A DNA stretch of 64,000 bases from Gammaproteobacteria bacterium (GCA_024224415.1 JAAENK010000324.1:1564-65563), one strand, 5' to 3'; shown: positions 21,342-28,938, counted from the stretch's first letter. Numbers and translations: made by a program. The notes: a model not told the origin generated them from the sequence alone.

Positions 21342-23534
21342 ATGGCACGCGATCCAAAACATGACATCCTGTTCGAACCAATCGATATTGGCCCCAAAAC
21401 ACTGCGAAATCGTTTCTACCAGGTTCCGCATTGTATCGGTGCTGGTTCCGATAAACCCGGTTTTCAGGCGGCACATCGCTCGATGAAAGCCGAAGGTGGT
21501 TGGTCTGGTATTAATACTGAGTACCTGTCAATCCACCCAGAATCGGATGATACGCATCGCCTGTCGGCGAGGCTATGGGACGAAGGCGACGTACGCAATC
21601 TGCGTGCAATGACCGACTACATCCACAAGTACGATGCGCTGGCTGGTGTCGAAATGTGGTATGGAGGATCACACGCGCCGTGTATGGAGTCACGTTGTAC
21701 GCCCCGTGGACCAAGTCAATACGCGTCGGAATTCGAAACCATGACCTACTGCAAGGAAATGGATCTGGATGACATCGAAATGGTGCAAGGTTATTACGTC
21801 GATGCCGCCCGTCGGGCGCGTGACGCTGGTTTCGATATTGTTTATGTTTACGGTGCCCACTCGTATTTACCATTACAGTTTCTCTCGCCTTATTACAACA
21901 AACGTACCGACAAGTACGGCGGTTCGCTGGAAAATCGTGCACGTTTCTGGATTGAGACGTTGGAGAAAGTTAAGAAGGCGGTCGGTGACGAATGTGCCAT
22001 CGCCACGCGTTTTGCTGTCGATACACTAATAGCTGATGCCGGCGTCGAAGTCGAAGAAGATGGACTCAAATTTGTTGAGCTGGCCGATCCGTTTGTTGAT
22101 GTCTGGGATGTAAACGTTGGCGACATTGCCGAATGGGGCGAAGATGCCGGGCCATCACGTTTCTACCGTCAGGGTCATCAAATTCCCTGGCAGAAATATA
22201 TTAAACAGGTGTCAAAAAAGCCAGTGTTGGGTGTTGGTCGTTTCACCGATCCGGAAAAAATGGCCGAAGTCATTCGCGCCGGACATCTCGATATTATTGG
22301 CGCTGCGCGTCCCTCCATTGCCGATCCATTTCTACCGCAGAAAATTGACGAAGGTCGCGCCGACGATATTCGTACCTGTATCGGTTGTAACGTCTGTATT
22401 TCGCGTTGGGAGATCGGTGGTCCACCAATGATTTGTACGCAAAATGCGACTTCCGGTGAAGAGTACCGTCGCGGCTGGCATCCAGAAAAATTCCCTAAGG
22501 CGGGTTCCGATGACTCATTCCTCGTGGTCGGTTCTGGTCCATCGGGTTCTGAGTGCGCCAGGGTATTAATGGAGCGCGGTTACACGGTGCATCTGGTCGA
22601 TGATGGTGACAAAATTGGCGGTCATATTAACGATGTTGCCAGTTTGCCGGGGCTTGGCGAATGGGGTTATCACCGTGATTATCGTGAAGTTCAGCTCGGT
22701 AAGCTGGTGAAGAAAAACAAAGAGTCACAAATTGCACTGGGTGCCAGCAGACTTGGTGTTGATGACTGTCTAGAATATGGTGCCGATAAAATTATTATCG
22801 CTTCTGGCGCCCAATGGAATACCGACGGCACCAATGCATTAACCCATGATCCGATACAGGGTATCGATGCCAGTCTGCCAACCCATTTGACACCCGAACA
22901 GGTATTCGCAGGCGATAAGCCAATCGGCAAGAAAGTCATGATCCTCAATTGCGATCCTTATTTTATGGCACCGAGTCTGGCGCAAAAGCTGCATGAAGCT
23001 GGCCATGAAGTCACTATTGCCACCGGTGTTGGCCTGGGTCACTATATGCACTTCACCCTCGAGGCGCCCAACATGCATCGCATGCTGCACGAATTCGGCA
23101 TCGAAGTCATTGGAGATGTCTGGGCTTCGCAAGCCGAGGCCAACAGGATTCAGCTATATCCGATTTTTGGTGATGGCTACCGGCGCGAATACCGAGGCCC
23201 CGGTAAATTGCCACGACGTGAAAACACGCATTTCGACTGGCATGAATTCGACTCACTGGTACTGGTGACTGGCCGTCATTCCGATTGCGAGTTGTTCAAT
23301 GGCCTCAAGGCGCGTAAAGACGAATGGGCAGGTAATGACGTCAAGGGTGTTTACGTGATCGGCGATGCCTGGGCACCGAAACTGATGGCCGATGCCACAT
23401 TTGATGGTCATCGACTGGCGCGGGAGATCGAAGGTAGTGATCCGCAGCACCCGGAACCGTATATCCGCGAAGTTGCGGTCTGGGGTACACCGCATATGCC
23501 AGGTGGCAAGTTCGAAATCGAATACGAAAGCTAA
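21342..23534 (+). CDS. tmd: Trimethylamine dehydrogenase (or very close dimethylamine dehydrogenase homologue)
   Basis: 730 aa; N-terminus [31 protein letters not shown] matches what I recall of Methylophilus W3A1 TMADH, including the Cys for 6-S-cysteinyl-FMN; 4Fe-4S motif [20 protein letters not shown] (C-x2-C-x2-C-x12-C); ADP-binding [10 protein letters not shown]. Confidence 0.85.
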
Positions 23535-23542
23535 GCTAAGCA

Positions 23543-27178: not shown

Positions 27179-27976
27179 ATGAAAATTCTAGTGCCCATTA
27201 AACAGGTAGGCGTGCTCGACGAAGACTTCGAGATACGCGACGATGGCCGGGATGTAGACCTTGATTACCTTGACTTTGAACTCAACGAATGGGATGACTA
27301 TTCATGGGAAGAAGCGCTACGTTTGCAGGAAGAATTTGGTGATGCGGTTGAAATTGTTCCACTCGCAGTCGGCCCCGAGGAAGCCGAAGAAGGCTTACGC
27401 AAATGTCTCGCCAAAGGTGGTGAACGCGGTATTCGGGTCTGGGACGATGCGATGCAAGGTTCCGATCCGATGGCGGTTGCGCGCGTGATTGCCAAAGTTG
27501 CCGAGCGTGAACAGGCGGATATGGTTTTTGCTGGGGCGCTGGCCTCTGACCATGGATTTGCACAAACCGGTGTGAGCGTCGCCGCACAGCTCGGCTGGTC
27601 ACAGGTTGCGGTGGTTTCAAAACTCGACTATCAACCCGGTGATAACAGCGTGAAAGTGAATCGCGAACTTGAAGGTGGCCTGGAAGAGGTCTTGAGCGTG
27701 CAGACTCCAGCCGTATTAACCATCCAGCTTGGAATTAATGAGCCTCGCTATGCATCCTTACGCGGCATTAAACAGGCAAAGGCAAAACCGGTGGAAGAGC
27801 TAAGTCATGGCGACCTCGGTTTATCCGATGAAGATGTTGGTGAAGCCGGCTCTGCATCGCGTGTGAGACGCATGTATTTACCGGAAAAAGGTCAGGCCGA
27901 GCTAATCGAAGGCACTCCAGCCGAACAGGCTGAGCGTCTGGTCGAAATCATCAATGAATTAAAGGGGGTAGCGTGA
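27179..27976 (+). CDS. etfB: Electron transfer flavoprotein beta subunit
   Basis: MKILVPIKQV start, ETF-beta fold, 265 aa. Confidence 0.85.
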   Translation: MKILVPIKQVGVLDEDFEIRDDGRDVDLDYLDFELNEWDDYSWEEALRLQEEFGDAVEIVPLAVGPEEAEEGLRKCLAKGGERGIRVWDDAMQGSDPMAVARVIAKVAEREQADMVFAGALASDHGFAQTGVSVAAQLGWSQVAVVSKLDYQPGDNSVKVNRELEGGLEEVLSVQTPAVLTIQLGINEPRYASLRGIKQAKAKPVEELSHGDLGLSDEDVGEAGSASRVRRMYLPEKGQAELIEGTPAEQAERLVEIINELKGVA

Positions 27977-28938
27977 TGGCTGAAATACTTGTAATCGCTG
28001 AACAGCGTCGCGGAGAACTGGCCGCGGCAAGTCTGGAGTGTATCGCCGCAGCGGTAGAATTAAAGCAAAGTGGCGGTCAGTCAGTAGTGGCCTGCATCAT
28101 CGCGCAGAATCCTGAGTCTTATGTTGCGCTATTATCGGTGGCCGGTGTTGATGAAGTTATTACCGTAACCAGCGTGGAGGCGGAATTTCAGAGTGATATT
28201 TTTGCAGAAACGCTACAGGCCCTGATCGAACAGCGCCAACCTGGTCTGGTGCTCGTGCCGCATAGCATCGATGCCTGGGGATATGCGCCTGCACTCGCTG
28301 TTCGCGGGCAGTATGGCTTTGCCAGCGATGTTTTTGGCATTCGGTATGACGGCGATGATCTGGTCGCAACCAGGGCTGCTTATGCCGAGAAGGTGCATGT
28401 TGAGATCGATTTTCCGGGGCGTCAAATCGTGTTGTTGACAGTGCGAGGAAATACCTGGAAACAAGTTGAGGAAAGTGGAAATCCCCAGATAACAGAATTC
28501 GCAATGCCTGCGATAACAAAACGCAGTAACCACGAAACTTTCCTTGAACCAGCCTCCGGAGGAGGAGTCGATATCACCCAGGCTGAATTTATGCTGTCGA
28601 TCGGTCGTGGTATTGACGAGGAAGATAATGTCGAACAGTTTGCAGAATTGGCCGAGTCGATGGAGTTTACCCTGGGTTGTTCGCGTCCGATTGCCGATAA
28701 TGGCTGGTTACCCAAGTATCGCCAGGTTGGTCAGTCGGGAAAAACCGTTAGTAGTTGCTCGATTTATCTGGCACTCGGTATTTCCGGTTCGGTACAGCAT
28801 ATGGCTGGTATGAAACATGTGCCAAATATTATCGCGGTAAATACCGACCCGGAGGCGTCGATTTTCAGTATCGCCCGTTACGGTGTAGTTGCCGATATTT
28901 TTGATATCGCCGAAGAGCTTGAAAATCATTTTGATTAG
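27973..28938 (+). CDS. etfA: Electron transfer flavoprotein alpha subunit
   Basis: ATGA overlap with etfB; FAD-binding C-terminal region (SGKTVSSCSIYLALGISGSVQHMAGM...IIAVNTDPEA). Confidence 0.85.
   Translation: MMAEILVIAEQRRGELAAASLECIAAAVELKQSGGQSVVACIIAQNPESYVALLSVAGVDEVITVTSVEAEFQSDIFAETLQALIEQRQPGLVLVPHSIDAWGYAPALAVRGQYGFASDVFGIRYDGDDLVATRAAYAEKVHVEIDFPGRQIVLLTVRGNTWKQVEESGNPQITEFAMPAITKRSNHETFLEPASGGGVDITQAEFMLSIGRGIDEEDNVEQFAELAESMEFTLGCSRPIADNGWLPKYRQVGQSGKTVSSCSIYLALGISGSVQHMAGMKHVPNIIAVNTDPEASIFSIARYGVVADIFDIAEELENHFD

Follow-up and report, generated by a model that had tools for sequence, protein, structure and literature searches.

How electrons leave the electron-transfer flavoprotein (ETF) once trimethylamine dehydrogenase (TMADH) has reduced it is the question raised by the locus described here. 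TMADH and ETF of Methylophilus W3A1 are a textbook model of interprotein electron transfer, but in the literature searched (full text, with few subscription journals) the reoxidant of W3A1 ETF is not named, and only the step from TMADH to ETF is treated. The locus occupies positions 21342-28938 (+) of a 64,000-nt stretch of Gammaproteobacteria bacterium DNA, which we call the window and from whose first letter all coordinates are counted. It consists of five co-directional genes, namely the TMADH gene tmd, a gene for a membrane protein of the EMO/EtfD type, a gene for an LRV-repeat protein, etfB, and etfA; a first-pass annotation had proposed these five genes on one strand, and all of them were confirmed. 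We consider that the operon probably represents the classical TMADH-ETF system together with its membrane outlet, the EMO-type protein, and give this whole explanation a probability of about three in four. The operon thus names a clonable candidate for the next step.

TMADH, ETF and the membrane protein between them

Judged by its sequence, the first gene is a true trimethylamine dehydrogenase (EC 1.5.8.2), because a full-length PDB match, the FMN cysteine, the four cluster cysteines, the bowl residues, and the Ser74/Trp105 pair are all present. The protein aligns end to end with W3A1 TMADH, Cys31 takes the place of W3A1 Cys30, the 6-S-cysteinyl-FMN site, and the cluster motif C346-x2-C349-x2-C352-x12-C365 is kept, so that both features named for tmd in the first-pass annotation were found. 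Tyr61, Ser75, Trp106, Trp265, and Trp356 of the window protein correspond to W3A1 Tyr60, Ser74, Trp105, Trp264, and Trp355, of which Tyr60, Trp264, and Trp355 make up the aromatic bowl. Tyr443 is also kept, and the pattern of cysteines, bowl residues, and Ser/Trp is common to 150 homologues in the retrieved loci. Ser74/Trp105 set TMADH apart from dimethylamine dehydrogenase, for which Basran and co-workers are said to have described in 1997 the signature Gln/Thr/Phe. We found it in one paralogue only, a divergently oriented gene with 64% identity (L109:2476-4677 (-)). At the other end of the operon, the ETF alpha subunit matches that of W3A1 (1o94_D/3clu_D, E ~1e-112) and keeps both the semiquinone-stabilising arginine of the CSRPIAD motif and the GISGS motif, and the window ETF is 56-59% identical to the ETF of a Methylophilus cluster described below (EtfB 59%). 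By these features the window ETF is of the W3A1 type, that is, canonical and non-bifurcating.

The gene between them was read in the first-pass annotation as encoding a 739-aa protein; the gene stood, and its length was revised. The 739-codon open reading frame (ORF; 23543-25762) begins at a TTG at 23543, while the NCBI model with 100% identity (P0001, 'MAG: Gammaproteobacteria bacterium (Fe-S)-binding protein', where MAG denotes a metagenome-assembled genome) has 717 aa from the ATG at 23609. The TTG start was rejected, as the NCBI model, the N-termini of the homologues, and a hairpin inside the 5' extension all favour the ATG. The layout of the 717-aa protein is that of a NarI-like cytochrome b domain comprising five transmembrane (TM) helices, an HdrC-like domain with two [4Fe-4S] clusters, and an HdrB-like CCG domain. 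Pfam recognised Fer4 dicluster families and two CCG stretches, the second of which is cysteine-complete (HDSC, CCGAGGG, CPKC), while the first lacks its cysteines; on the N-terminal 300 aa it gave no family even at E <= 1. Only sub-threshold matches were returned by NCBIfam (TfrB, LdhH, TmcB, DsrK, GlpC, HdrB/C, and QmoC), with bit scores far under the curated cut-offs (DsrK 50/400, GlpC 47/278, TfrB 138/385, HdrB 23/345), on which ground an identity as a DsrK, HdrD, or GlpC equivalog was rejected. The sole full-length match in the PDB was 9ojn, the EtfD protein of Mycobacterium smegmatis. An AlphaFold2 (AF2) model built on 52 homologues (pLDDT 80.6, pTM 0.77) predicts five long TM helices (residues 21-50, 82-116, 124-150, 177-206, and 237-264), and Foldseek aligned this model with 9ojn at TM-scores of 0.80/0.77 over 752 columns, the next relevant folds being HdrB and NarI (TMt 0.51-0.59 for NarI).

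On the basis of sequence and modelled fold, the 717-aa protein is a member of the EMO/EtfD-type ETF:quinone oxidoreductase family (COG0247), whereas annotation pipelines label it just '(Fe-S)-binding protein'; this provides a basis for naming it. The Pfam and NCBIfam results, the EtfD match, and the fold uphold the domain reading of the first-pass annotation, namely a fused cytochrome-b-like membrane part, two 4Fe-4S motifs, and HdrD-type CCG motifs. Its DsrMK/HdrD-like label was right as to the types of domain, but the exact family is EMO/EtfD. Of the haem, Fe-S, and CCG domains whose absence on profile search it had named as counter-evidence, the Fe-S and CCG domains were found by Pfam.

The cofactor ligands were checked by alignment to segments of 9ojn and its relatives and to 52 orthologues. 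The protein has two CxxCxxCxxxCP motifs (C317/320/323/327 and C382/385/388/392), and the ligands of the two cubane [4Fe-4S] clusters D3 and D4 (C317/320/323/392 and C327/382/385/388) are invariant in the 52 homologues. The same is true of the ligands H541, C591, C626/627, and C666 of the proximal non-cubane cluster (D2/FeS3), with C669 present in at least 90% of the 52; H541, C591, C626, C627, C666, and C669 align with EtfD H583, C637, C672, C673, C709, and C712. The ligands of the distal non-cubane cluster (D1/FeS4) are gone, with EtfD Cys503/538/581/584 replaced by Asp/Thr/Asp/Ser. Researchers have found that this cluster varies in the family, being [3Fe-4S] in MsEMO (that is, EtfD), [4Fe-5S] in SaEMO (the Syntrophus aciditrophicus enzyme), and absent from FadF and DgcB, so it is not a defining feature (PMC13083937; bioRxiv 10.64898/2026.08.18.745454); FadF and DgcB likewise lack the D1 cysteines (PMC13083937). 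Three histidines of the membrane domain, H88, H251, and H269, do not vary among the 52 homologues. A proximal haem b is predicted at His88/His269, a pair that aligns with EtfD H241 and with SaEMO H87 and H251.

Comparison with characterised proteins shows both what is shared and what is different. The cryo-EM structure of M. smegmatis EtfD contains five TM helices, one haem b (His78/His241), two cubane [4Fe-4S] clusters, a non-cubane [4Fe-4S] cluster D2, and a linear [3Fe-4S] cluster D1 (PMC13083937). The mycobacterial protein (MSMEG_0690/Rv0338c) and the window protein have in common the single chain, the 5-TM NarI-like haem b domain, the two cubanes, and the proximal non-cubane site, and the role of EtfD, with ETF as donor and the quinone pool as acceptor, would be the same here. 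However, the window protein is just 28-30% identical to EtfD, lacks the four cysteines of the linear D1 cluster and the disordered C-terminal tail of about 30 kDa, and has an insertion of 25-30 residues on the cytoplasmic side between TM3 and TM4. EtfD is unlinked and serves many acyl-CoA dehydrogenases, whereas the window gene lies inside the operon of one dehydrogenase with its own ETF, and the quinone of EtfD is menaquinone, whereas that of the window host should be ubiquinone. The insertion (residues 151-181, 24059-24151; PKLDYxRPDR...DR..YRxEDW) is found in all TMADH-linked EMOs, whereas FadF, EtfD, DgcB, and the relatives from haloarchaea and Agrobacterium do not have it; we regard it as a candidate element for docking of a partner.

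The family name EMO comes from a preprint on the Syntrophus enzyme, in which H87/H251 are the proximal haem ligands and H233 is the ligand of a distal twin haem (bioRxiv 10.64898/2026.08.18.745454). This ETF:methylmenaquinone oxidoreductase has the same three-domain layout (706 vs 717 aa) and an ETF donor, and its H87/H233/H251 are spaced identically to H88/H251/H269 of the window protein. It differs in having three haems, a [4Fe-5S] distal cluster, and a reverse loop driven by proton-motive force in an anaerobe, while the window protein has lost the distal Fe-S site and belongs to amine oxidation in an aerobe. With HdrDE, DsrMK, and GlpC, the window protein shares the CCG domain, the dicluster ferredoxin, and the NarI-like cytochrome b, but its domains are fused in one chain, one CCG cluster site is lost, and its gene is not surrounded by dsr, hdr, or glp genes. 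The canonical ETF:quinone oxidoreductase (ETF-QO; ETFDH, FixCX) presumably has a similar role in ETF reoxidation and quinone reduction but is not homologous, being a monotopic flavo-Fe-S protein, whereas the window protein is integral, with five TM helices, a predicted haem, and no FAD-binding domain. Neither Pfam nor NCBIfam found an ETF_QO or FAD-dependent oxidoreductase domain in the 717-aa protein, and an identity as canonical ETF-QO was rejected accordingly.

Another published relative is the dimethylglycine cluster DgcA/DgcB/ETF (Wargo 2008, as cited in PMC13083937). The DgcA-DgcB-EtfAB system of Pseudomonas, represented in our comparison by Azospirillum B510 plasmid pAB510c (L081), likewise combines an Fe-S flavoprotein of the TMADH family acting as N-demethylase on a methylated amine, a membrane Fe-S/CCG protein without the D1 cysteines, and a dedicated ETF. 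Nevertheless, DgcA is 27% identical to the window TMADH, DgcB matches the window protein over the C-terminal Fe-S half only (36%, residues 288-700), and the membrane domain of Azospirillum DgcB is DUF3483 (6e-53), to which the window protein has no match at E <= 1. The etf order in the Dgc cluster is alpha-beta, with a longer alpha subunit, whereas the window order is etfB-etfA. Identity with DgcB was rejected on account of an N-terminal domain other than DUF3483 and a partner other than DgcA.

Linkage of tmd, EMO and etfBA genes across genomes

A search of genome contigs seeded with the EMO gene gave 78 loci with orthologues of 56-82% identity, and in every one of these loci with flanks long enough, tmd (74-93% identity) lay upstream and etfBA downstream. 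The recurrent order tmd-EMO-(LRV)-etfB-etfA extends across alpha-, beta-, and gammaproteobacteria, including Methylovorus mays, M. menthalis, Hyphomicrobium, Methylohalomonas, Methyloceanibacter, Candidatus Porisulfidus, and many Steroidobacteraceae MAGs. The converse search, seeded with tmd in metagenomes and one plasmid, gave 66 loci with at least 700 nt downstream of tmd; EMO was present in 65, immediately after tmd in 62 and behind an inserted gene in 3, and both etfB and etfA were found in 47 of the 48 loci whose downstream sequence reached 5.6 kb or more. In L162 and L163 the insert is another tmd paralogue; these loci (L162:8001-12437 for the first) carry two tandem tmd paralogues, with 76% and 72% identity and TMADH-type residues in both, before the EMO gene. 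The linkage over about 150 loci is, like the gene identities, the ligand conservation, and the fold, a direct observation. The co-occurrence of tmd with the EMO gene, which the first-pass annotation had proposed to examine, thus proved to be near-complete, and the consistent tie to some other dehydrogenase, which it had considered damaging to its reading, was not seen, as the orthologues sit between tmd and etfBA.

Plasmids also carry the cluster. A gene of the TMADH clade occurs in 7 plasmid records, and the cluster was confirmed in all 6 that were inspected (a second P. aminovorans record was left out), namely Paracoccus aminovorans plasmid IV and plasmids of Azoarcus KH32C, Cupriavidus, and three Paraburkholderia. 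Specificity of the linkage for the TMADH clade is seen from TMADH-family genes at 47% identity on plasmids of Aminobacter and Gemmobacter, which adjoin a GcvT-like gene and lack both ETF and EMO genes nearby. Remoter relatives of EMO adjoin etfBA together with other dehydrogenases, such as an acyl-CoA dehydrogenase in Niallia, a GMC oxidoreductase in Agrobacterium, a protein resembling dimethylglycine dehydrogenase (DMGDH) in Halobellus, and DgcA in Azospirillum. On the Halobellus limi plasmid (L080, 3036-10169), the EMO relative has 39% identity and a Nitrate_red_gam match in its membrane domain, and its gene adjoins, in divergent orientation, etfBA and a gene for an 844-aa DAO+GcvT protein (dimethylglycine/sarcosine dehydrogenase-like), near a BCCT transporter. 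This locus seems to be the archaeal equivalent of such wiring for the demethylation of betaine.

The cluster is also found in the genus in which the TMADH-ETF pair was studied. In a Methylophilus sp. MAG (GCA_052173275.1, L169:5535-16256), genes for an amino-acid permease, tmd, EMO, LRV, etfB, etfA, and dmmABC follow one another in this order. Its proteins are nearly identical to the chains of the crystallised W3A1 complex (TMADH 1710 bits; ETF alpha 638 bits over 321 aa), so the classical TMADH-ETF pair is encoded around an EMO gene. In both L169 and L171 (Methylophilaceae), a gene of the amino-acid-permease family lies upstream, and downstream there are genes whose products have DmmA-like and HODM-like domains (dimethylamine monooxygenase). 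The Methylophilaceae cluster would thereby form a contiguous module leading from trimethylamine (TMA) to dimethylamine and on to monomethylamine.

Proposed route of the electrons and its alternatives

In the reading that we prefer, TMADH would oxidise trimethylamine to dimethylamine and formaldehyde, with electrons passing from 6-S-cysteinyl-FMN to its own [4Fe-4S] cluster and from there, one at a time, to the dedicated ETF (FAD oxidised/semiquinone couple); single-electron transfer from this cluster to ETF is established for W3A1 (PMC8097209; PMC12630350). The ETF semiquinone would be reoxidised at the HdrB-like CCG domain of the 717-aa protein, in which electrons would run from the single non-cubane [4Fe-4S] cluster through the two cubane [4Fe-4S] clusters to the proximal haem b in the NarI-like domain, then to the quinone pool (ubiquinone, as expected in a gammaproteobacterium), and finally to terminal oxidases. 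The hairpin after tmd probably sets a higher expression ratio of TMADH to EMO and ETF. The transfers from ETF to EMO and from EMO to quinone we infer by analogy with two characterised family members. ETF-dependent beta-oxidation requires EtfD, by which ETF is wired to menaquinone (PMC13083937; PMC8593149), and in the purified Syntrophus EMO the haems were reduced via EtfAB and the EMO-ETF complex has been solved (bioRxiv 10.64898/2026.08.18.745454). The wiring in the first-pass annotation, from TMA through TMADH and ETF to a membrane Fe-S protein, is therefore well supported by comparative genomics, with the quinone step argued from these relatives.

Several observations weigh against this reading and bear on other explanations. 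One of them is that the sequence examined was the window rather than the whole genome. A Pfam scan of nearly every ORF of 150 aa or longer found no canonical ETF-QO (ETF_QO domain) within these 64 kb, but such an enzyme encoded elsewhere might reoxidise ETF, in which case the CCG/Fe-S protein would serve another purpose, for instance disulfide reduction or maturation of the TMADH cofactor, and CCG domains are indeed catalytic thiol/disulfide sites in Hdr and TfrB. Nevertheless, the linkage to tmd and etfBA is near-obligate over three proteobacterial classes, relatives associated with other dehydrogenases always have their own etfBA, the distal CCG cluster is lost as in the ETF-linked FadF and DgcB, and the fold match with EtfD is full-length. 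We regard a role of this kind as highly improbable.

A second point is thermodynamic. The ubiquinone/ubiquinol couple lies at about +100 mV. Because the oxidised/semiquinone couple of W3A1 ETF, at about +196 mV (PMC12630350), exceeds this value, simple transfer from ETF to ubiquinone would be uphill, at a cost of roughly 100 mV for each electron, if neither a change of potential within the complex nor an input of energy came to its aid. The chain may thus be the same but energised, with a functional distal haem or twin haem and quinone site and with the membrane potential driving electrons from the +196 mV ETF semiquinone to ubiquinone, that is, a reverse redox loop in an aerobe. H251, T102, and D110 are invariant and lie at the offsets that SaEMO H233, A101, and H109 have from the proximal-haem histidine, which presumes gapless helices. 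In SaEMO, H233 is a distal haem ligand, A101, for which HdrE has Ser, is a neighbour of the second distal haem, and H109 is the proton donor to quinone (bioRxiv 10.64898/2026.08.18.745454). The Thr(+14)/Asp(+22) pair is shared by the Halobellus relative, the Rhodococcus EtfD relative having Ala/Phe there, and the periplasm-side loops are conserved to the same degree as the rest of the protein. The histidine at the distal haem position is invariant, yet M. smegmatis EtfD keeps the same histidine without a distal haem, and for the window protein one haem or more may be predicted. In addition, the best structural match of the model is the mono-haem 9ojn in a set of structures that did not include SaEMO, and cofactors are not readable from sequence. 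We consider the energised chain unlikely. If true, it would carry the 'reverse redox loop', known until now from syntrophic anaerobes only, over to aerobic methylotrophy, and would explain a long-standing thermodynamic oddity of W3A1 ETF.

The remaining point is that the outlet is not universal, since 1 of the 66 tmd loci lacks both EMO and ETF. In this locus (L105:3369-6719, Ga0209395_1001603), tmd has 76% identity and no EMO or ETF gene occurs within 8 kb downstream; the next gene after tmd is a 340-aa ORF that ends in a cytochrome c domain, and its product could be an alternative high-potential acceptor for TMADH. It could accordingly be asked whether the membrane protein itself is a transmembrane conduit to a periplasmic high-potential acceptor such as cytochrome c, and not a quinone reductase. 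The high potential of W3A1 ETF suits cytochrome c better than ubiquinone, and the distal-side histidine is conserved, but both characterised family members reduce quinones, NarI-type domains are quinone-reactive, and neither the window nor any locus other than L105 has a cytochrome c gene tied to the cluster. We regard such a conduit as highly improbable.

The EMO-type protein is probably the missing link from the W3A1-type ETF to the respiratory chain. The logic of such a system, in which a dedicated dehydrogenase has its own ETF and an EMO-type membrane protein, is already known from DgcAB-EtfAB for dimethylglycine and from EtfD, FadF, and EMO for fatty acids. Thus, the statement in the first-pass annotation that this wiring was not described for methylated-amine oxidation was too strong, given the published DgcA/DgcB/ETF system and the haloarchaeal DMGDH-like relative. 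A full-text literature search, with most subscription journals outside its scope, gave no paper tying TMADH to a protein of the EtfD, EMO, or DgcB type, and the wiring of TMADH via EMO, including that of the W3A1-type system, appears to be unreported. A candidate between tmd and etfBA makes the whole path from TMA to the respiratory chain reconstitutable and poses a concrete thermodynamic question, namely how a +196 mV donor is matched with ubiquinone. The EMO/EtfD family, which currently draws attention for drug development against tuberculosis and for its part in syntrophy, would be extended to ubiquinone-using aerobes and to amine oxidation, and in environmental genomics TMADH-based TMA oxidation is better marked by tmd-EMO-etfBA than by tmd on its own.

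Layout of the locus and neighbouring genes

The features of the locus are collected in Table 1.

Table 1 Features of the tmd-EMO-etfBA locus and its immediate neighbours (window coordinates)
Feature	Position	Strand	Basis
GcvT-like aminomethyltransferase-family gene (context gene)	20024..21127	+	Pfam GCV_T + GCV_T_C
tmd, trimethylamine dehydrogenase, 730 aa	21342..23534	+	1316 bits, full length, vs PDB 1djn/2tmd
GC-rich hairpin, then UUUUACUUU	23544..23580	+	Folding: minimum free energy -26.5, centroid -23.1 kcal/mol, z = -2.5
EMO/EtfD-type membrane protein, 717 aa	23609..25762	+	Pfam CCG x2 + Fer4; 9ojn_A E = 1e-79
LRV/HEAT-repeat protein, 460 aa	25762..27144	+	Pfam LRV/HEAT; 1lrv E = 3e-6
etfB, ETF beta, 265 aa	27179..27976	+	Pfam ETF
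etfA, ETF alpha, 320 aa	27976..28938	+	Pfam ETF + ETF_alpha; ATG 27976 (ORF listing: GTG 27973)
DMT/EamA-family transporter (345 aa) + 96-aa ORF (context genes)	28961..30298	+	Pfam EamA

The first-pass annotation had described stop/start overlaps at TAATG and ATGA. The former is present where the EMO gene meets the LRV gene (25760-25764), and the overlap of etfB and etfA reads TGATG (27974-27978). The genes tmd and EMO do not overlap, but are separated by a 74-nt spacer with a GC-rich hairpin and a U-tract. Together with the start codon of the EMO gene, the etfB/etfA overlap and this spacer are the only points on which the first-pass description had to be corrected. This hairpin, directly after the tmd stop codon, was found by direct folding and was not listed by a consensus terminator scan. 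Hairpins of differing sequence stand at the same position in the marine gamma-, alpha-, and betaproteobacterial loci (most of L001-L028); in Steroidobacteraceae-type loci the hairpin is missing and the spacer is about 20 nt. Because the position is kept while the sequences are unrelated, differential expression within the operon is suggested, and the hairpin is probably an intra-operon attenuator or an mRNA-stabilising stem-loop by which TMADH would be expressed more strongly than the downstream genes. The overlap of the LRV start with the EMO stop codon, in turn, suggests translational coupling.

The LRV protein has Pfam LRV/HEAT matches only in residues 372-457, i.e. in its C-terminal third, its Pfam and PDB matches are to the generic repeat only, and no cofactor motif was found in it. 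A search of 5.8 billion proteins gave 93 homologues, and both full-length ones whose locus was examined lie in tmd clusters; a 753-aa 'homologue' with 26% identity was rejected as an unrelated LRV-repeat protein in a different gene context. The gene is present in 14 of 48 metagenome tmd loci and is missing from Steroidobacteraceae-type clusters. The protein may, with low confidence, be taken as a dispensable accessory specific to tmd clusters, most likely an adaptor or assembly factor.

The GcvT-like gene upstream of tmd has homologues adjoining or near tmd in many loci, including the Paracoccus and Azoarcus plasmid clusters, and its product probably takes part in tetrahydrofolate-dependent capture of the formaldehyde freed by TMADH. 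The formaldehyde/C1 side is represented elsewhere in the window by FolD, FTHFS, gmaS-like, and N-methylglutamate-pathway genes (Pfam, NCBIfam). The EamA transporter and the 96-aa ORF, which belongs to no known family, also follow etfA in L003, L004, L006, L007, L009, L021, L090-092, L094, L097, L100, L108, and Paracoccus aminovorans, many of these loci being marine, and together the two are a possible transporter for methylated amines. No dmm or dmd gene lies near tmd in the window.

Farther away, the window contains genes for the RuBisCO large subunit, CbbQ, and a VWA-domain (CbbO-like) protein, as well as N-methylglutamate-pathway genes (GS-like, GATase, GXGXG, and Glu_synthase domains), an Amt transporter, and FolD (40704-45724 and 2098-10754). 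Among genomes, the cluster has its nearest relative in a sponge-associated MAG of 'Candidatus Porisulfidus'. From these genes and this relative, the source organism seems to be an autotroph with methylated-amine oxidation as a further capacity. Two divergent genes of the PAD_porph family (agmatine/peptidyl-arginine deiminase; 37432-39684) adjoin a LysR regulator and the RuBisCO operon. At 52941-55647 and 56629-58596 there are genes for a COX1-family oxidase subunit, a glutathione-dependent formaldehyde-activating (GFA) protein, and a zinc alcohol dehydrogenase with an esterase, the latter two being the usual pair for glutathione-linked formaldehyde detoxification. A GFA and zinc alcohol dehydrogenase pair like that of the window also lies downstream of tmd in L105.

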